From the IMG/VR virus record IMGVR_UViG_2548876940_000011: a DNA stretch of 39,560 nucleotides; one strand, written 5' to 3'. The position numbers and the translations under genes were made by a program. This document shows positions 22,950-34,674 of the stretch, piece by piece. Under the pieces are notes generated by a model, which had not been told where the DNA came from, searched no databases, and worked only from the letters and a program-made list of their open reading frames with translations. The DNA comes from a virus. Taxonomy: Duplodnaviria; Heunggongvirae; Uroviricota; Caudoviricetes. Positions within the stretch are counted from its first letter, which is position 1, and every line of letters starts with the position of its first letter.

Positions 22950-23228
22950 ATGACAACCATTTTTATTAAACCTGCGCCGGGATGCCTGATTCGCGATCCC
23001 GACACGATGACTCCGCTCTCACAGGACGGTGAAGAGAAACCCTTCACTCCGTTCTGGTGCCGCCGTCTTAATGATGGTGACGTCATTGTGGTGGATAAAA
23101 CGGAGGAGCCTGCCCCGGCTGCCACAACAGGTAATACCGGCGCGGCGGCAAAACCAGCGGGAGCGGCAGCAGAAAAAACTGCGGCGGTGGCTGAAAAAAC
23201 CGCAGCATCAGATAAGGGGACGTCCTGA
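22950..23228 (+). CDS. Hypothetical small protein upstream of the sheath gene
   Basis: 92 aa; Ala/Lys-rich C-terminus. Confidence 0.55.
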   Translation: MTTIFIKPAPGCLIRDPDTMTPLSQDGEEKPFTPFWCRRLNDGDVIVVDKTEEPAPAATTGNTGAAAKPAGAAAEKTAAVAEKTAASDKGTS

Positions 23229-24730
23229 TGATTAACTTTGATTATATCGGCGATAACAATCGCATTCCGCTGGTACAGATTGAAATCAATAATTCAATGG
23301 CCGTGACCGGCACTCCACCACAGCGTCAGGCGGTACTGTTGTTTGGTCAGGCTGCAATGAAAGACACCACCATTCAGGGGCGCGGTCAGCTTGATGTACC
23401 AGTACGTATTACCCGAGCTTCACAAGCAAGAGAACTCTGGGGGCGAGGTTCCATGATTGCACTGATGGTAGAGGAATTTATCGCCATTAACCCTGACACA
23501 GAGTTATATGCCATTGCACAGGGGGCTGGAACAGGTCAGTCCAGGGCATGCGTGATGAATATCATTGGAACAGCATTGGCAGACGGGGTGTTAAGTGTTT
23601 ACATCGGCGGTCGCCGTTACCTCCTGCCCGTCAGTAAGGGGAAAAAAGGTAAAGAGCTTGTGGAAGAGCTGGCTAAGGTCATTAACGCTGACACTGATGC
23701 GCCATTCACTGCTATCGCAGCTGAAGTCAGTGGTGATAATGCTGAAGGACTTAAAGGCAGCATGGGGGTTAACGCCCGCTTTATCGGTGAATGCTCAGCT
23801 CATGATTTACGGGTGAACTATTATGACGGTGAAACTACACCGGCCGGTCTTACGCTGGAGCTCGTCGCGCCAACACAGAAGGCAACAAACCCCGATATCA
23901 CCCGTAGCGTCTCAGGGATGGGGAATCGTCAGTACAACTACATCGTCATGCCCTATAAGGATGCGGCAAATCTCAAAATTCTGGCGGATGAACTGCTGAA
24001 ACGCTGGGGACCGGTAAAAATGTCGGACGGTATGGTCTGGATGGCGCATACCGGCACCTTCGGTACGGCAACCAGTTTTGGTGAATCCCGTAATGACTTC
24101 CTGTTTACCTGCACTTCTATTCCTAAAGCACCAGAGCCGGATTATGTCTGGGCTGCCTCCATTTGTGCGGTCTGTGCGCCCTCCCTGTCAACGGATCCGG
24201 CCCGACCATTACAGACACTGGCGCTGCCTGCCCGTATGGCACCTGAAGCACCGGATCGTCTGACGCGGGAAGAGCGAAACAGCCTGCTTTATACCGGCAT
24301 GTCCACGGTGACCGTTGCGGCCGCTGATGTGGTGCAGATTGAACGTCAGGTGACGATGTACCGTCAGAATGCATACGGCGAAAGCGATCCCAGCTATCTG
24401 GATGTAGAAACCATCTACACCCTGTCATATCTGCGTTATTCCCTGCGCACCTTTATCACGCAGCGTTTCCCGCGCCACAAACTGGCCGATAACGGTACTC
24501 CCGTCCGGCCCGGTCAGAATATCGTGACGCCGGAGATTATGACGCTCCAGCTGATTGCACTGGGGGAAGAATGGGTGGAACTCGGGCTGGTCGAAAATCT
24601 GGACACCTTTAAAAAGAATCTGCTCGTGGAGCGCAACACAAAAGACCGTAACCGTCTGGATGTGATGTGTACACCGGATCTGGTTAACCAGTTCCGCTTC
24701 ATGGCCGCGCAGATCCGTTTCATTTTGTGA
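23228..24730 (+). CDS. Contractile tail sheath protein (Mu L-like)
   Basis: 500 aa followed directly by a ~120-aa tube gene. Confidence 0.85.
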   Translation: MINFDYIGDNNRIPLVQIEINNSMAVTGTPPQRQAVLLFGQAAMKDTTIQGRGQLDVPVRITRASQARELWGRGSMIALMVEEFIAINPDTELYAIAQGAGTGQSRACVMNIIGTALADGVLSVYIGGRRYLLPVSKGKKGKELVEELAKVINADTDAPFTAIAAEVSGDNAEGLKGSMGVNARFIGECSAHDLRVNYYDGETTPAGLTLELVAPTQKATNPDITRSVSGMGNRQYNYIVMPYKDAANLKILADELLKRWGPVKMSDGMVWMAHTGTFGTATSFGESRNDFLFTCTSIPKAPEPDYVWAASICAVCAPSLSTDPARPLQTLALPARMAPEAPDRLTREERNSLLYTGMSTVTVAAADVVQIERQVTMYRQNAYGESDPSYLDVETIYTLSYLRYSLRTFITQRFPRHKLADNGTPVRPGQNIVTPEIMTLQLIALGEEWVELGLVENLDTFKKNLLVERNTKDRNRLDVMCTPDLVNQFRFMAAQIRFIL

Positions 24731-24738
24731 GGTAAGGC

Positions 24739-25104
24739 ATGAGCGGAAAACAGCATCAGGGCACGGCCACCATCCGTGTGAACGGACAGGAGTACGCCAC
24801 CCTTGAGGGAGCCACGTTCTCCCCGTCCGGCTTTGAGCGTGAAGTGGTGAAAGGCGCGAAAGTCTATGGCTATCGTGAGAAACCCCGTGAGGCGACGCTG
24901 GACTGTAAATTTCCGGCTGGCGGAGAAGGTTCACCGGCTGCCGATGAAATCAACACCTGGACTGCGGTCACGATTGAGTTCGTGGCCGATACCGGTGAAG
25001 TCCATATGATGACGAAGGCTTGGAGCAGTGAACCGGCCTCGCTTGACGGTGGCGGTGATATCTCCGCGAAGTTCGCCAGCGCCACCAGTACCCGTGTCCA
25101 GTAA
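24739..25104 (+). CDS. Tail tube protein (Mu M-like)
   Basis: 121 aa immediately after the sheath gene. Confidence 0.8.
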   Translation: MSGKQHQGTATIRVNGQEYATLEGATFSPSGFEREVVKGAKVYGYREKPREATLDCKFPAGGEGSPAADEINTWTAVTIEFVADTGEVHMMTKAWSSEPASLDGGGDISAKFASATSTRVQ

Positions 25105-25118
25105 TCAGGAAAAATGCA

Positions 25119-25598
25119 ATGACCACACGTAAGAAAAAAACGGCGGTTTCTGACGAGGCCGTGATGGAGGCTATCCGGGATGCACTTGAAGACGGCGATC
25201 CCCGCACCGCCGGGCTGGCTGAACAGCTGGCGAACGGCTATGTGGATCTGCTCGACGGTCTGCCGTTCGGGGAATCCCGTGAATACCGCGTCACCTTCCG
25301 CGAACTGACGGCGAAAGACAGCATTGACGCGGAAACCGAGGCCGAGCGTCTTATGGAAACCCGAAATGGCGGCCCGGTTCTGATAGCCTCGCCGGCACTG
25401 CGCGGCATTGCACTGCTGCGCCGTCAGATTGCCGCTGTTGGCCAGATTGAGGGGCCATTGTCTCCGCGTCAGATCGGACAGCTCAGCGAGCGCGATCTCT
25501 CCCGTCTGATGGCGGCGGTAAGCCTGCTTGATTCCGCGATGGCAGGAAAGCTGGTCGCTGAACGGGGGCGACCAGATGCAGTGCCGGGATCAGATTGA
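25119..25598 (+). CDS. Tail assembly chaperone candidate
   Basis: 159 aa acidic protein between tube and tape-measure genes. Confidence 0.6.
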   Translation: MTTRKKKTAVSDEAVMEAIRDALEDGDPRTAGLAEQLANGYVDLLDGLPFGESREYRVTFRELTAKDSIDAETEAERLMETRNGGPVLIASPALRGIALLRRQIAAVGQIEGPLSPRQIGQLSERDLSRLMAAVSLLDSAMAGKLVAERGRPDAVPGSD

Positions 25599-25722
25599 AG
25601 AAGCCGCAATTGTGCTGGGGATGGTGACAAAAAGCGGCCCGGAGTGGGCGCTTAACCTCCCTTTATCGCAGCTTTACCGGCACTGCCGACAGACCGAAAA
25701 AATTCTCAGAACGAAGCAGTAA
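25528..25722 (+). CDS. Overlapping +1-frame ORF, candidate frameshift extension of the chaperone
   Basis: 64-aa ORF overlaps the last 71 nt of 25119..25598 in the +1 frame and ends 4 nt before the tape-measure start; G-run AACGGGGGCGAC in the overlap. Confidence 0.4.
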   Translation: MIPRWQESWSLNGGDQMQCRDQIEEAAIVLGMVTKSGPEWALNLPLSQLYRHCRQTEKILRTKQ

Positions 25723-25725
25723 CCC

Positions 25726-27783
25726 ATGGCAAAAAACCTGAAAGCCTCCCTGATTGTCGATTTACTCGGCAATATTTCCGCCAAATCCCGCCAGTGGTCA
25801 CAGGAGCTGGGGGCGTTCTCCCGTTCCGGCAGGACAGGCCTGGGTGGTCTTGGAAATGCAGCCCGCCGGGCCGGTCAGGAAACAGAACTTGTCGGCTCCC
25901 GTATGCAGCGAACGCTTGCCGGTGTTCGTGGCAGCATCCGCACGGTAACGTCAGATTTTGACCGCCTGCAGGGCAGCATTACCGGCACCATCGGGCAGAT
26001 AAGCAACCTTTACGGGATGCTGGCGGGAGGGGCTGCGGTCTACGGTTTTAATAAAGCCTTTATCCGCCCGGCCGCAGAGATGGAGAACTATATTCTGCGT
26101 CTCAACGCCATTAATCATGGCGATACGGCAAAAACGGAAGCAGTGAAAGCCTGGGCAGTACAGAACGCCAAAGACACCACCTGGGGGCTGGCGGGGGTTA
26201 TGCAGGAATACGCCTCCAGTCGCGGGTTTGGCATGAGTGACAGGGAAGCCCGTCGCTTTATTACCATGCTTCAGGATCAGGGCGGCTATCACGGCTGGTC
26301 ACTGTCAGATGCACAGGGTGCGTCCCTGCAACTCAAACAGATGTTTGCCCGCCAGAGTATCCAGGCAGCGGACGCCAATATTCTGACCGGATACGGGATT
26401 AACGTTTACCAGTTACTGGCCGATAAGCTGGGCGTAAACCAGAAGATCATCCGTGAGAAAGGCGAAAAAGGAAAACTGGGGCCGGACAGCATTCGCCTGT
26501 TATTTCAGGTGATGGCCGAACAGGCAAAAGGTGCCCAGAAAAACGCTATGAATTCCTGGACGGGAATGACGTCCATGATGGGCGACGTCTGGGACGGATT
26601 TGCCCGCGAGGTGATGGCAAAGGGACCGTTTGACAGCCTGAAAAAGAGCCTGAAAGGCTTCCTGGATTATGCCGATGCGGCACAGAAAAGCGGCTTACAG
26701 GATAAGCTGGCCACACAGACGGCCTCAGCTCTGAATCAGGGATTTGAGTATGCCAGAGACGCTGCGACCGGCTTTTACCGGGTCATTCAGAAAGTCAGGG
26801 AAACGCTTCAGGCACTGCGCGACGCCGGTTATGGCGATGCGCTGGATCGCATTGGTCAGGGTGCGCAGACCGCCGCAAAGTACCTGATGTATATGTATCT
26901 CGCCTCCCGTGCGCTGAAGGTGCTCAGGTTTGCGGGGACGGGGGCATTACGTCTCGGCGCAACCCCCTTACGCTATGGCATGGCGATGACCTCCGTGCTG
27001 ACGTCGCCCTTCCGCAAACCGCAGACCACTGTACCGGGAACGCAGCCCGGACGCGCTGGCCGGTTCCTGAATTTCCTTACCGGGGTAAATCCGGCTGCCG
27101 TTCAGCCCGTGCTGGTCACCAACTGGCCTGCGGGTGGCCTGGCCTCAGGTGGCGGGGATGTGGTGGTCAGCGGTGACGGCAAAACCGTGCGCGGCCGTAA
27201 AAAACGCGGCCCCGGACGTGGACGGGGTGTCACGACCGTCGTGACTGCCGGTGAGCAACTGGCGGAGAGTGCCGGTAAACAGGGCTTCTTCGGTCGTATG
27301 ATGAGCCGTGCCGGTGGTCTGCTAACGGCGGCCGGAAACCGCATGGGGCTGGGGCGTTTTGCCGGGCTGTTCCGTGGTGCCGGTCGGCTGGGTGGTGGTG
27401 CCCTGTGGGCCGGTGCCATGGCGGCTCCTGTACTGCTGGACAGCAGCGCCAGTGCAGCCGATAAAGCCGGTGCCGTGGGTTCCCTTGCCGGAAGTATCGC
27501 CGGTGGCGCGCTGGGGGCGGCTGCTGGTCCGGTCGGGGTTGCCATTGGTTCCACGGTGGGCAGCTATCTCGGTGATTATCTGGGGGGCTGGCTGACGCAG
27601 GCCTGGCAGAAACTGCGTGGCGGCAGTGACGAAAACGGCGGACAGGCCACCGCGAAAACCGCCGCACGGGTGGAGCTTGTGGCCCCTGAAGGCTGGCGGG
27701 CGCGCAGTATTGATGTGGATGATACCGCACAGCATGGCCTGGATGTGAACGTCTGGAACGGAGGGAACTATGGCCTCTACTGA
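25726..27783 (+). CDS. Tail tape-measure protein (Mu N-like)
   Basis: 685 aa; Gly/Ala-rich C-terminal half; position after tube/chaperone. Confidence 0.85.
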   Translation: MAKNLKASLIVDLLGNISAKSRQWSQELGAFSRSGRTGLGGLGNAARRAGQETELVGSRMQRTLAGVRGSIRTVTSDFDRLQGSITGTIGQISNLYGMLAGGAAVYGFNKAFIRPAAEMENYILRLNAINHGDTAKTEAVKAWAVQNAKDTTWGLAGVMQEYASSRGFGMSDREARRFITMLQDQGGYHGWSLSDAQGASLQLKQMFARQSIQAADANILTGYGINVYQLLADKLGVNQKIIREKGEKGKLGPDSIRLLFQVMAEQAKGAQKNAMNSWTGMTSMMGDVWDGFAREVMAKGPFDSLKKSLKGFLDYADAAQKSGLQDKLATQTASALNQGFEYARDAATGFYRVIQKVRETLQALRDAGYGDALDRIGQGAQTAAKYLMYMYLASRALKVLRFAGTGALRLGATPLRYGMAMTSVLTSPFRKPQTTVPGTQPGRAGRFLNFLTGVNPAAVQPVLVTNWPAGGLASGGGDVVVSGDGKTVRGRKKRGPGRGRGVTTVVTAGEQLAESAGKQGFFGRMMSRAGGLLTAAGNRMGLGRFAGLFRGAGRLGGGALWAGAMAAPVLLDSSASAADKAGAVGSLAGSIAGGALGAAAGPVGVAIGSTVGSYLGDYLGGWLTQAWQKLRGGSDENGGQATAKTAARVELVAPEGWRARSIDVDDTAQHGLDVNVWNGGNYGLY

Positions 27784-29128
27784 CACGCCGGGGCGTGGCT
27801 CCTTTCGTGGCGTACCGTTCCTGGTTTATCAGGAGCAGCGGGAACGGGGCGGACGTAACATTGTGCGCCGTGAATACCCACTGCGTGAAAGCGGCGGTGC
27901 GGATGATCTGGGGCCAAAACTCCCGGAGTTCACATTCACGGTTCTGGTGACCGGAGACGATCTTCAGACACAGCGAAGCCGCCTGCGTGATGCGCTGCGT
28001 GCACCCGGTGCCGGTGAACTGATGCACCCGGATTACGGCACGTTAAACGTGCTGATAAACAGCTTTGAAAGCCGTTATAACGCCAGCGAGCAGGGAACGG
28101 TTGAGTTCACGATCAACGTGATCCCCGCCAGTGACGATACCGCCCCTGCGGTGGCAGAAGATACGGCAGCTGCGCTGGAGCAGAAAAGCGGCTCAGCAAT
28201 GAATCAGCTGTTTAACACGCTTTCAGACGGCTGGACGGTGATTTCAGACGGTCTGCATGATGTACAGGCCATGACCGACACCATCAGCGATAAGATTGAT
28301 GCACTGGAGAATGCCGTTTCGGGGATGGGGATTGTGCAGGATATCAGTGCCTTTACGGCCAGTTTTACTGCCCTGAAAGGCAATGCCGCCGCCCTGATTA
28401 ATGCGCCCCGTCGCATGGCTGAATCGCTGGCCGGAATGTTTGCCGTGCTGACCGGGCTGCCCGACGATCCTTCCCTGTCTCTGACCGGAAAAGCCGGAAC
28501 GCCGTCCGGCAGCCTGACCACAAACCGTGACAGCATAGCAGAGCAGGCCATGCCGCAGCTGTACCGCACACTTTCCTCCCTGCGTTACACCCTCAGCGAA
28601 CAGGATGATCCACAGCGCCTGATTGGCCTGACGCCTGCGGCACAGAAAAATATCCGTCTGCTGCGGAGCGTGATGCAGAGTGCAACCCTGGTGTCGCAGG
28701 CACAGACGCTCGGAAAACTGCTGGATCAGGTCATCCGGCAGAATACGACGCACGTTCAGGATACTGACCGTTCGGGCGGACTGACCTGGCTGGAAAGTTC
28801 TGCTGATGTGCAGCGTATCAACCGGGATTTGAGCGATGCCATGGAACAACAGGTGCTGGATCTGTCCGCACAGGGCTATACCGGGACTGCCCTTGCATTA
28901 CGTGATGCAGGGCTTGCGCTGACAGAAGATTTAACCACACGGAGCGTGCATCTTCCCGGTGCTTTTCAGGTCATGGTTCGCACCACCGAACCGGCACTGG
29001 TCACGCTGTACCGTGCCACCGGCAACAGCAGTCGCTGGCAGTATTTTGTCCGCAGAAACAATATCCCCGATCCGGTTTTTGTTCCGGGTGGCCGCAGCGT
29101 GGAGGTGATCAGTGAGCAGCAGGATTGA
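27770..29128 (+). CDS. Mu P-like baseplate / DNA-circularisation-family protein
   Basis: 452 aa; overlaps tape-measure end. Confidence 0.75.
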   Translation: MASTDTPGRGSFRGVPFLVYQEQRERGGRNIVRREYPLRESGGADDLGPKLPEFTFTVLVTGDDLQTQRSRLRDALRAPGAGELMHPDYGTLNVLINSFESRYNASEQGTVEFTINVIPASDDTAPAVAEDTAAALEQKSGSAMNQLFNTLSDGWTVISDGLHDVQAMTDTISDKIDALENAVSGMGIVQDISAFTASFTALKGNAAALINAPRRMAESLAGMFAVLTGLPDDPSLSLTGKAGTPSGSLTTNRDSIAEQAMPQLYRTLSSLRYTLSEQDDPQRLIGLTPAAQKNIRLLRSVMQSATLVSQAQTLGKLLDQVIRQNTTHVQDTDRSGGLTWLESSADVQRINRDLSDAMEQQVLDLSAQGYTGTALALRDAGLALTEDLTTRSVHLPGAFQVMVRTTEPALVTLYRATGNSSRWQYFVRRNNIPDPVFVPGGRSVEVISEQQD

Positions 29129-30236
29129 ACTGTATATCGGTGGCAGTATTTTTTCCGGCTGGCTGACGGTCAGCGTCCGTCGCTCGCTGGAGCATCTGGC
29201 CGGGTCGTTTGAACTGGGGCTGATGCTGCCCGGTGAGCGCATCCCCTCAGCCCTGCGAACCGGTCAGTCCCTGACGCTCAGAATTAACGGGCAGACGGTC
29301 ATCAGTGGCTGGCTGGATCAGGTCAGTCAGCGGATCAGTGCAACCCGTCATCAGATCAGCATCAGCGGTCGGGATAAAACCGGCGACCTGGTGGACTGTG
29401 CCGCCATCCATCCCGGCAGCCAGTGGCGCAACCGGACGCTGGCACAGATTGCCGCAGATTTATGTGCGCCCTTCGGGATAGCCGTGCGCTGGCAGGTTAA
29501 CGACGACACGGCTGCACGCCCCTTCAGCTCTTTTACGCTGGAAAACTCAGAAACCGTGGCGGATGCGCTGACCCGTGCTGCCCGGCATCGCGGGGTGCTG
29601 GTGACCAGTAATGCTGACGGCGATCTGGTGTTCACCCAGGCAGGAAGCCAGCAGACGGACAGACTGGTGCTGGGAGATAACCTGCTTGATGCCGATTACA
29701 ACACGGACTGGCGAGGACGATACAGCGAATACCGTGTCCGGGGACACGGGCGCGGTGGTGGCAAACGGGGAGACAGCGAATCCGCCGCCCGTCTGGCAGC
29801 ACCTGTGGGCGTCATCAGTGATGAGCAGATCGGCCGCTACCGGCCGAAAATCATCCTCGCCGATCAACAGACAGACACCACCGGTGCACGGCAGCGTGCC
29901 CTGCGTGAAATGCGCCGTGCGATTGCCCGTTCAGAACGGTTTTCTGCCACCGTGCGTGGCTGGTTCCGGGATGATGGCCGGTTATGGGATGTCAATCTGC
30001 TGACCGGTGTTTCAGCCCTGCGTTTCGGTATAGAACAGACTGAACTGCTGGTCTGTCAGGTAGAGTTTTTACTTGATGAACATAACGGGGAAGTCACCCG
30101 GCTGGTACTGGCACCGCGTGACGGCTTTATCGTTCCGGCAGAGCCGGACAGTAAGGGCCGGGGTGGTTCCGGTGACGATGTTGATGCCTTTATTCGCCAG
30201 CAGATGAAAAAACAGGGGATCAGCTTTGATGAATGA
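29112..30236 (+). CDS. Mu Q-like baseplate hub protein
   Basis: 374 aa; overlapping start. Confidence 0.75.
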   Translation: MSSRIELYIGGSIFSGWLTVSVRRSLEHLAGSFELGLMLPGERIPSALRTGQSLTLRINGQTVISGWLDQVSQRISATRHQISISGRDKTGDLVDCAAIHPGSQWRNRTLAQIAADLCAPFGIAVRWQVNDDTAARPFSSFTLENSETVADALTRAARHRGVLVTSNADGDLVFTQAGSQQTDRLVLGDNLLDADYNTDWRGRYSEYRVRGHGRGGGKRGDSESAARLAAPVGVISDEQIGRYRPKIILADQQTDTTGARQRALREMRRAIARSERFSATVRGWFRDDGRLWDVNLLTGVSALRFGIEQTELLVCQVEFLLDEHNGEVTRLVLAPRDGFIVPAEPDSKGRGGSGDDVDAFIRQQMKKQGISFDE

Positions 30237-32352: not shown

Positions 32353-32903
32353 CCCTGACCCCACATCAGCGCGCCCTGTTGCAGTTACTGCCTGACGGGC
32401 TGGCATGGGACAAGCGTCCGTCATCCGTACTGGCATCATTATGTCTGGGCCTCAGTCATTCGACAGCGCGTGTATCCTGGACGGGTAAACAGCTGCTTGC
32501 CGAGCGTTTCCCTGACACGTCGCGCCTGCTGCTGGAAGACTGGGAGCGTTATCTCGGGCTTCCCGAGTGTGATATGGCCGGAGCCACCCTCACGGAGCGA
32601 CAGCGTTATGCCGGCAATAAATACCGGATGAAGCCCTCGCTGAACCGTGAATTTTATATCCGGTTTGCGGCGGAGTTTGGTTATCAGATTGACATTCAGC
32701 CCTCACCGGATTCGCAGTGGGTCAGTATTGTCACGATTAACAGTGAAACCGGCTACCGGAATATGAATGTGCTGGATGATATTCTCACGCCGCTGCGTAT
32801 TTATGAAGGCGGTGCGCTGGAATGTATTCTGAACCGTTATAAGCCTGCATGGCAGACGTTTATTTACGTTTATGCAAACAGCCATGAAGAGGAGACTATT
32901 TAA
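32343..32903 (+). CDS. Tail protein (Mu gp48-like)
   Basis: 186 aa; overlaps both neighbours. Confidence 0.7.
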   Translation: MAVTLTPHQRALLQLLPDGLAWDKRPSSVLASLCLGLSHSTARVSWTGKQLLAERFPDTSRLLLEDWERYLGLPECDMAGATLTERQRYAGNKYRMKPSLNREFYIRFAAEFGYQIDIQPSPDSQWVSIVTINSETGYRNMNVLDDILTPLRIYEGGALECILNRYKPAWQTFIYVYANSHEEETI

Positions 32904-33814
32904 TGTTTCATGTTGATAATAATTCCGGCGTGGCGAATATGCCTGCGCTGGCACCGGCGCAGAGTAATACCACCACCTGGTTTACCGAAGGTGACGGACA
33001 AAAAGGTATCAGCTGGATTGGTCAGGACTGGCTGAATATTCTCCAGGCCGAACTGCTGAATATTCTGGCTGAAGCCAGTATTCAGCCGGATAAGGCGCAG
33101 TTAAACCAGCTTACGCTGTCCATTAAAGCCATTATCGCTGCGAATGCCTTTTCCCGGAAAAATAACCTGAAAGAAATTGCTGATGCCGGTGCGGAGGCCC
33201 AGCGTCTGGCCCGTGGTTATCTTGGTCTGGGGACGCTTGCCATAAAAAACAGTCTTGGTCCCGGTGACGTTAATGCCCTGGCGAAGGATCAGAATCTCGC
33301 CGACCTGGAGAATAAGGGAACCGCCCGTAATAATCTGGATGTTTACAGCAAAAGCGAAGGTGATAACCGTTACCTGCGCAGGGAGCAGAACGGCGCAGAC
33401 ATTCCGGATAAAGGGGCTTTTATCGATAACGTCGGTTTACGGGAAACGGTGAATAAGGCGGCGAATGCTCTGCCATCGGACGGCACCGCCGTTGCCGCGA
33501 ATAAACTCTCCACCCCAAGAAATATTAATGGCGTTCCTTTTGACGGGACGCAGGACATATACATTACCTCCGGTATGACTGAAGCTACTGCTGATAACAA
33601 ATACGTTAGCAACGTTCAGCTTGGTGCCCAGAGTTACCATTCACCCGGAGGTAATGAAATGTCCTGGAGTTATGGTGCACCTTCTGGTTGTATGCTTTCA
33701 GGTATTAACGTGCAGGATACCGGGAAAAGTTCAGCCGATAATATCGGAGGCGTTTATTACCGTCCGGTGCAGATATATATCGGTAATGCCTGGCGCACAG
33801 TTTCATCCGTCTGA
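32903..33814 (+). CDS. Tail fibre protein (Mu S-like), constant N-terminal part plus short variable C-terminal part
   Basis: 303 aa; fibre-repeat-like NINGVPFDGTQDIYITS; internal gix-like site at 33420..33445. Confidence 0.8.
   Translation: MFHVDNNSGVANMPALAPAQSNTTTWFTEGDGQKGISWIGQDWLNILQAELLNILAEASIQPDKAQLNQLTLSIKAIIAANAFSRKNNLKEIADAGAEAQRLARGYLGLGTLAIKNSLGPGDVNALAKDQNLADLENKGTARNNLDVYSKSEGDNRYLRREQNGADIPDKGAFIDNVGLRETVNKAANALPSDGTAVAANKLSTPRNINGVPFDGTQDIYITSGMTEATADNKYVSNVQLGAQSYHSPGGNEMSWSYGAPSGCMLSGINVQDTGKSSADNIGGVYYRPVQIYIGNAWRTVSSV
33420..33445. other. gix-like DNA-invertase crossover site inside the tail-fibre gene
   Basis: TTATCGATAACGTCGGTTTACGGGAA; reverse complement TTCCCGTAAACCGACGTTATCGATAA matches the recalled Mu gix consensus TTCCTGTAAACCGAGGTTTTGGATAA at about 23 of 26 positions. 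Confidence 0.55.
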
Positions 33815-33848
33815 TTAAAGGAAAAGGGTGCGATAAGCACCCTTTATG

Positions 33849-34370
33849 TTATTCAGGCTTCTCCGGCCATTTAATGGCGTCAAATTCAGCTTTGTTTTTA
33901 ATCGCTGGTAGTTCCATTTTTTTCACCTGACTGATGTATTTCATCCATCGTGTAAGCGCAGCTCTGTTTTCATCACTAATCGTGCCCAGCTGTAACTCAG
34001 TTCTCCAGTCATTAATCTTTTCATATGCCTGATTAAGATATGACTGGCGCAGTGCTTCCGCTTTTTTGGTATAGTTAACCGGGAGTTGTGAGATGACACC
34101 ATTATCAAACTTCCAGTTACCTGAAATATCAGTACCTTCAGGTAATTCGTCTGTCTCAACAACGGAAAAACCCGCAGGATACAGCGCCGAAGCATCCTGT
34201 GATATTGAGCAGATAACACCGCTGTCAGGGGTTATGCAAAGTTTATATTTTTTGGTGAATAATGGCAGGGACTCATAGAAATCCTTACCATCTTCACTTT
34301 GAAAATACTGTACATCATTACCAAAGGGTTTTTGTTCCGGGTAATATCGGTTAACATTAATCAGTTGCAT
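33849..34370 (-). CDS. Tail-fibre assembly chaperone (Tfa / Mu U-like), opposite strand to the fibre gene
   Basis: ORF 33849..34421; from Met at 34370 reads MQLINVNRYYPEQ...; ISQDASALYPAGFSVVET and C-terminal DWRTELQLGTISDENRAALTRWMKYISQV are typical of Tfa (compare recalled P2 G: ITRDASTLNPEGFSVVEV). Confidence 0.75.
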   Translation of the reverse strand: MQLINVNRYYPEQKPFGNDVQYFQSEDGKDFYESLPLFTKKYKLCITPDSGVICSISQDASALYPAGFSVVETDELPEGTDISGNWKFDNGVISQLPVNYTKKAEALRQSYLNQAYEKINDWRTELQLGTISDENRAALTRWMKYISQVKKMELPAIKNKAEFDAIKWPEKPE

Positions 34371-34674
34371 AAACATCACCATGTAAATCAATGATAAAAA
34401 CAGGAATAATAATATCGCCATATACAGGCAAGGGGTTTCTGAAATAACGCATATTTTCAGATGCTGACCGCAGCGTCATGAATCGTTAAATCAATTATAA
34501 GCCGGTAATATGCGGTTATCGTATTGGCCTGTCCATCCTTTGTCGTTATGTTCCTGCCTAACCGGCTCCGTCACAAAAAGTACCGTGATGCTTTTTTTGA
34601 ATTTCCGCAAAACACATATTTATCAGCGGTTGTTATTCTGACTCTGTTTAATTCAGAAACAGGCAGAAAAGACG

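Follow-up and report, generated by a model that had tools for sequence, protein, structure and literature searches.

In phage P2, the pair gpE / gpE+E' is produced by means of a −1 frameshift. For phage Mu, Xu, Hendrix and Duda reportedly described a programmed frameshift that affects the tail assembly chaperone and has the direction −2 (Mol Cell 2004). Reviews and genome papers also give the Mu shift as −2. In phage lambda, according to one review, a short chaperone is accompanied by a rarer form that is extended at the C-terminus, and neither of them is found in the virion. The other well-known case of −2 shifting is that of the arterivirus protein nsp2TF, which takes place at the site G GUU UUU. 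Arteriviruses are eukaryotic RNA viruses, and the tandem slippage occurs on a U-rich heptamer and needs a trans-acting protein complex. According to the review, a two-base backward shift reaches the +1 frame and that the product contains one residue more than that of a +1 shift, and in this respect the arterivirus case is like the one considered here; it is unrelated to it in sequence or in the function of the product.

In this work we analyzed the region between the tail tube and the tape measure genes of a virus record of 39,560 nucleotides (IMGVR_UViG_2548876940_000011); this whole stretch of DNA is referred to as the window. A prediction made from the letters of the window had placed there a candidate programmed frameshift at the end of the tail assembly chaperone gene. 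From the comparison with Mu and with other relatives we conclude, with a probability of roughly 0.88, that the site is the ortholog of the programmed −2 ribosomal frameshift of Mu gene 41 / FS-gp41, and that it would yield a 201-aa fusion protein beside the 159-aa chaperone.

The prophage and the reading frames of the chaperone locus

The window is a complete Mu-like transposable prophage of E. coli, in which a CI-type repressor, the MuA transposase, MuB and a Mom-family protein are encoded. Over the kilobase tested, it is 100% identical to the complete chromosome of E. coli S1-CAM-01-A, and related copies of the prophage are present in 230 of 5426 complete E. coli genomes. As in Mu, the gene for the Mom-family protein (PF25680, E 1.6e-77; 38023-38955, plus strand) is found close to the right end. 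A further region, 32903-36729, recalls the invertible G segment of Mu by the opposed orientation of its genes: a plus-strand ORF of 303 aa, for which no Pfam match was obtained, is immediately succeeded by a minus-strand gene (33849-34421) for a tail-fibre assembly protein (Caudo_TAP), and next comes the gene of a protein of 684 aa in which a SASA carbohydrate-esterase domain and DUF6645 were recognized.

The genes encoding the sheath, tube, chaperone, tape measure, DNA_circ_N and gpP proteins are arranged in the order of Mu, and the features of this region are collected in Table 1.

Table 1. Positions in the window of the tail genes and of the elements of the putative shift site
Feature	Positions	Strand	Remarks
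Tail sheath gene	23228-24730	+	Phage_sheath_1
Tail tube gene, directly upstream of the chaperone gene	24739-25104	+	Pfam Tail_tube PF10618, E 1.4e-29; order as Mu gene 40
Tail assembly chaperone gene	25119-25598	+	Zero-frame product of 159 aa; ortholog of Mu gp41
Putative shift site CGG GGG CGA	25563-25571	+	G5 run at 25564-25568
P-site codon GGG of the putative shift site	25566-25568	+	
A-site codon CGA of the putative shift site	25569-25571	+	
Family-invariant core G GGG CGA	25565-25571	+	
+1-frame extension after the proposed −2 slip	25567-25722	+	51 codons (GGC...CAG) and TAA; ortholog of the C-terminal part of Mu FS-gp41
Predicted frameshift product, full span	25119-25722	+	201 aa; junction ...LVAERG/GDQMQCR...; built by analogy with Mu
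48-aa ORF from internal ATG	25576-25722	+	Separate 'hypothetical protein' in some RefSeq genomes
Tape measure protein gene	25726-27783	+	Pfam TMP_3 PF20155, E 2.1e-17; order as Mu gene 42
DNA_circ_N protein gene	27770-29128	+	
gpP-like baseplate protein gene	29112-30236	+	

As the original prediction stated, a 64-aa ORF that lies in the +1 frame relative to the chaperone (25528-25722) overlaps the last 71 nt of the chaperone gene and terminates just before the tape measure gene, given that its TAA occupies 25720-25722 and the ATG of the next gene is found at 25726, 3 nt after this stop. The +1 frame is open from 25522 to 25722, its first canonical start is the TTG at 25528, and the overlap amounts to 77 nt if it is counted from the first sense codon at 25522. 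The G-run that had been noted in the overlap, CGGGGGCG, is located at 25563-25570. Stops at 25559 and 25625 close the −1 frame, and no in-register heptamer of the X_XXY_YYZ type was found in the chaperone gene (25119-25598); only a +1 or a −2 shift can thus connect the two frames, and a −1 frameshift of the lambda type was rejected on these grounds. The length of the open +1 frame is unremarkable by itself: from the stop density, 66 open codons are expected by chance with P of about 0.07, and among 402 open stretches counted in the +1 frames of the genes in the window, 26 reach or exceed this length. It is the homology, the purifying selection and the conserved site that raise this feature above chance.

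The codon CGA represents 4.9% of the Arg codons in the genes of the window. Near the start of the chaperone gene, codons 5-8 (AAG AAA AAA ACG) include a run of seven A (25134-25140, plus strand); it is probably just part of a Lys-rich N-terminus, and both other frames close there within about 10 codons.

The chaperone and the extension differ in their annotation state. In RefSeq, the 159-aa protein is named 'phage tail assembly protein' (WP_000213223.1), and NZ_CP145714.1, the genome identical to the window, has no feature in the plus-strand stretch 25599-25725. The annotation of strain M3 contains a 'hypothetical protein' of 48 aa (WP_001149937.1, present on 116 contigs) that begins at the ATG equivalent to 25576. 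A ribosomal-slippage CDS is annotated in no record of this prophage lineage, which sets it apart from Mu, and an exact-sequence look-up of the 201-aa fusion product of the window in a collection of 15 billion proteins gave no match.

Relationship to phage Mu and to known frameshifted loci

The 159-aa chaperone matches the Pfam family Gp41_Mu (PF23746; E 1.2e-32, 112.7 bits vs a cut-off of 27) and phrog_508, 'tail assembly chaperone' (E 2.7e-44), and with Mu gp41 it has 50% identity (E 3e-35). The +1-frame extension shows 54% identity with the extension of Mu (E 2e-23) and matches phrog_12783 from end to end (E 1.6e-38). In the GenBank record of Mu (AF083977.1), the chaperone is entered as Mu_41, and at the homologous place there is a two-piece CDS, Mu_56, whose note reads 'verified -2 translational frameshift in PMID 15469818'. 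The Mu site is ...CAA GAA CGG GGG CGA GTG... and that of the window ...GCT GAA CGG GGG CGA CCA...; the 12 nt in common, GAACGGGGGCGA (GAA CGG GGG CGA, 25560-25571), are identical in the window, in Mu, in D108 and in a Mu-like element inserted in Stx phages, and in Mu and the window they are placed alike relative to the C-terminus of the chaperone. The arrangement of chaperone and extended chaperone anticipated by the original prediction was therefore recognized here as orthologous to Mu 41 / FS-gp41, with a site identical over 12 nt, and the unusual direction of the shift is already the textbook exception of Mu.

The direction in Mu was also approached through the products. Both the −2 and the +1 products were built from Mu DNA, and each was submitted to an exact-sequence look-up. 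The −2 product (188 aa, junction QERG/GEWL) corresponds exactly to Swiss-Prot P0DJY4, named "Probable tail assembly protein FS-gp41", and to UIW09302.1, and P0DJY4 carries the extra Gly of the −2 junction; the +1 product was not present in the 15-billion-protein collection.

Mu and the window have in common the gene order (sheath, tube, chaperone, extension, tape measure), the Gp41_Mu family, the identical 12-nt site in the same register, and a +1-frame extension of 51 codons with a stop just before the start of the tape measure gene. In contrast, the chaperone of the window is only about 50% identical and has 15 extra residues at its N-terminus; its zero-frame tail past the site comprises 9 codons vs 7 in Mu; the ATG that it has three codons past the site is CTG in Mu; a 9-bp hairpin surrounds the site in the window only; and the fusion product of the window's lineage, unlike that of Mu, is annotated nowhere.

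The other phage systems are more distant. P2 gpE / gpE+E' also belongs to a contractile-tail phage and has the same gene position, and the window chaperone gives a sub-threshold match to the Pfam family Phage_TAC_7 (PF10109, 'E, or 41 or 14'; E 8.4e-5, 23 bits vs a cut-off of 25); the shift of P2 is, however, −1 according to the GenBank note of Mu_41. Likewise, lambda gpG / gpGT is encoded in the same place, between the major tail protein and the tape measure genes, but lambda has a non-contractile tail, no sequence similarity with the window locus, and a −1 shift at G GGA AAG, a heptamer of the X_XXY_YYZ type that the window does not have.

By analogy with Mu, the following sequence of events may be proposed. 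Most ribosomes would translate 25119-25598 and release the 159-aa chaperone. A minority would pause with tRNA-Gly on the GGG codon in the P site and the rare, slow CGA codon in the empty A site; the tRNA-Gly would then slip two bases back onto GGG 25564-25566, and decoding would restart at GGC 25567 in the +1 frame, to continue for 51 codons up to the TAA. The product would be a protein of 201 aa that consists of the body of the chaperone and a helical C-terminal extension (...VAERG-GDQMQCRDQIEE...). Following the analogy with lambda gpG / gpGT, the part common to both forms would bind the tape measure protein and the extension would recruit tail-tube subunits, with translation itself setting a fixed, low ratio of the long to the short form. 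The sequence comparisons show the anatomy of the locus, its orthology to Mu, the identity of the site, the coding constraint on the +1 frame and the invariance of the core throughout the family; that the prophage shifts at all, in which direction and how often, that CGA causes the pause, and what the two proteins do are inferences.

Additional signals were sought around the site. RNAalifold, applied to 20 diverse relatives, predicted 0 pairs of conserved RNA structure, and the 89 nt downstream of the site fold no better than shuffled sequences (z −1.09 in the window and −0.61 in Mu). The window gave no match in an Rfam scan, and no tRNA was found in it. The shift site falls within the loop and the 3' arm of a perfect 9-bp hairpin formed by CUGGUCGCU and GGCGACCAG (25551-25559 with 25567-25575, plus strand); as a signal this hairpin was discarded, given that it occurs in the window only and that neither Mu nor the relatives with 85-90% identity have it. 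An AGGA at 25544-25547, considered as an upstream Shine-Dalgarno-like stimulator, is absent in Mu and was also rejected. For the 201-aa product, a single-sequence AlphaFold2 model reached a mean pLDDT of 51.6, too poor for a fold search, and a PDB sequence search with the fusion product returned no matches.

The sheath gene of the window contains a second in-register copy of the same G5 plus CGA motif, TGG GGG CGA, at 23438-23446 (plus strand). To shift at this position would be wasteful; a −2 slip would terminate after four codons (GEVP*), and Mu gpL does not conserve the motif. Thus either the nine nucleotides do not by themselves suffice to cause a shift, or the translation of the sheath is aborted at this point in a small share of cases.

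Conservation of the site and coding constraint on the extension

For the comparative analysis, loci were gathered from phage records, from one genome locus obtained with a single-protein query, and from 93 viral-contig loci obtained with an alignment-based scan. After the removal of duplicates, 69 distinct loci were left, and 68 of these were informative (L077 was set apart). They span phages of Escherichia, Citrobacter, Pasteurella, Klebsiella, Shewanella, Vibrio and Alteromonadaceae, with the reference Mu included. The core G GGG CGA was found in register in all 68, and in all of them the +1 frame extends for 48-52 codons from the site to the tape measure gene; the comparison with relatives, suggested together with the original prediction, thus bears out both the site and its frame relation. 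In an ungapped comparison of 81 nt among 50 distinct segments, the 7 nt of G GGG CGA were the sole invariant stretch. A full run of five Gs, GGGGGCGA in the register NGG GGG CGA, close to where the chaperone frame ends, is present in 59 loci.

Two positions of the core are informative as to what is being conserved. The G before the GGG codon is always kept, though the codon of which it forms the third position encodes R, K, S or Q depending on the lineage. Similarly, the C of CGA is never replaced by A, though with AGA the chaperone frame would still read Arg and the extension frame Gly. Both observations point to selection on nucleotides rather than on proteins. The first one also gives modest support to a −2 shift, since re-pairing on N-G-G needs this G and a +1 slip does not, in an argument that derives from only about four independent codon changes.

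The remaining nine relatives have only four Gs and retain the full extension in the +1 frame. These sites read AAG GGG CGA (L004, L015 and L044-L047), CAG GGG CGA (L051) or TCG GGG CGA (L084 and L085), and the set includes the sister clade of this prophage, of the Citrobacter braakii type, with a chaperone 75% identical to that of the window. After a −2 slip these relatives would mispair at the first codon position, which suggests that perfect re-pairing on five Gs is not essential to the family.

Two assemblies show a different condition. In L077 (IMG/VR 2758568005_000002, approximately 1545-1560) and L106 (Logan ERR1010218, a contig of 65 kb, 1904-1915) the site reads CGG GGC GAG, with one G fewer, and the chaperone and the extension are fused in frame in a protein of 187 aa (junction ERG/EWL). 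In L077 there is a second indel later in the extension, and the reading with one G fewer points in this locus to a sequencing error or to decay. For the two assemblies together, a homopolymer error of sequencing or a genuine mutant that makes the fused form only may be the cause.

The constraint on the extension was evaluated in 14 unique sequences of the window's clade, whose chaperones are 75-100% identical. Past the stop codon of the chaperone, the variable sites are distributed as 10/5/27 over positions 1/2/3 of the +1-frame codons. When the window was compared with relatives 85-90% identical, the ratio of synonymous to nonsynonymous codon changes in the +1 frame ranged from 9:2 to 12:2, and the same changes read in the other two frames gave 0-1 synonymous to 9-13 nonsynonymous. 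The excess of third-position changes and the synonymous bias show purifying selection on the +1 frame past the chaperone stop and indicate that the extension is translated in this frame.

The start codons of the extension follow another pattern. At the codon equivalent to 25576 there is an ATG in 22 of the 68 loci and a TTG or GTG in 10 more (32 together), the other 36 have no canonical start at that codon, and Mu has CTG. In 29 loci the open +1 frame contains no ATG, GTG or TTG ahead of the site. The extension thus has no conserved start codon of its own, in contrast to the site and the frame relation, which are kept; a downstream ORF with its own start and an unconserved overlap, the finding that would have spoken against a programmed shift, was not what the relatives revealed.

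Alternative readings and significance

The closest competitor of the −2 shift is a +1 frameshift at the same site, in which tRNA-Gly would slide from GGG 25566-25568 forward by one base onto GGC while CGA is decoded slowly, to give a fusion of 200 aa, one Gly shorter, with the junction ...VAERG/DQMQ... The arithmetic of the frames permits +1 as well as −2, and in the nine relatives with four Gs the −2 re-pairing (on AGG or CGG) is no better than the +1 re-pairing (on GGC), since two of three positions pair either way. Nonetheless, the annotation of the Mu ortholog gives the −2 shift as verified and the curated Mu product has the extra Gly, reviews list Mu as −2, and the invariant G upstream of the GGG codon, kept across amino-acid changes, is not needed for a forward slip. 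For the window we therefore consider a +1 shift quite unlikely. The original prediction had admitted +1 or −2 in place of the usual −1; the exclusion of −1 stands, and of the other two directions it is −2 that is favored by the homology with Mu and the pattern of conservation, at the expense of +1.

It could also be argued that no recoding takes place and that the extension is a separate small gene of 48 aa, translated from ATG 25576 with the G-run as a Shine-Dalgarno-like element. In the window, GGGGG precedes this ATG with a spacing of 7 nt, WP_001149937.1 is listed as a 'hypothetical protein' in some RefSeq strains and is found on 116 contigs, and nearly half of the relatives (32/68) have ATG, TTG or GTG at that codon. 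Mu, however, has CTG there and still makes the fusion, more than half of the relatives (36/68) lack a canonical start at the codon, and 29/68 lack any such start in the part of the open +1 frame that precedes the site. Moreover, conservation among the relatives extends to the 7-nt core, to the register that it has relative to the chaperone and to the residues GG(D/E) encoded upstream of the ATG position; a separate gene would need no fixed register with the gene upstream, so that an independent start cannot explain the conserved register and site. As a substitute for the shift, this reading is very unlikely.

Less likely still is transcriptional slippage, by which the RNA polymerase would drop one G or add two in the G5 run and a normal ribosome would read the edited mRNA. 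The site is indeed a homopolymer, and the L077 and L106 assemblies, with four Gs and an in-frame fusion, show that the run is prone to indels, be it in biology or in sequencing; both are, however, DNA assemblies and not transcripts. Productive transcriptional slippage in bacteria normally requires runs of about 7-9 or more A or T. In comparison, five Gs, or four in nine relatives, make a very short run, the invariant CGA would have no role, and the Mu event is described as translational. Finally, a chance open frame (P about 0.07 by stop density alone for its 66 codons), or a single gene split by a sequencing or assembly indel, we regard as already refuted by the comparative data, given the two-frame arrangement in 68 distinct loci from several genera with the reference Mu among them, the purifying selection in the +1 frame, and the 100% identity of the window with a complete E. 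coli chromosome.

The points that count against the −2 reading are the relatives with four Gs, the motif in the sheath gene, the absence of a conserved RNA structure and the small number of independent codon changes behind the argument from the invariant third-position G. One may think of a slip driven by CGA that tolerates a first-position mismatch, or of a +1 shift in some of the lineages and, separately, of a free 48-aa domain produced from ATG 25576 with the G-run acting as a Shine-Dalgarno-like element; this is a speculative extension that we hold to be rather unlikely.

The Mu-type −2 frameshift has been known since 2004 and is now entered in Swiss-Prot as well as in the reference record of Mu, and this general picture is unchanged by our results. 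What is lacking for this lineage is just its annotation, and the variants with four Gs, together with the sheath motif, constitute a loose end of some mechanistic value. If the sites with four Gs still shift, the Mu-type event would not be a simple −2 re-pairing on a run of five Gs, and if the free 48-aa extension is also made in the window, three products would come from one locus. The comparative table (an invariant core of 7 nt, with five Gs in 59 and four in 9 of the 68 relatives) adds a little to this picture and might serve as a guide for mutational studies of how −2 shifting works in bacteria. The main import concerns annotation: the two pieces could be joined as a ribosomal-slippage CDS, as is now the case for Mu (Mu_56).
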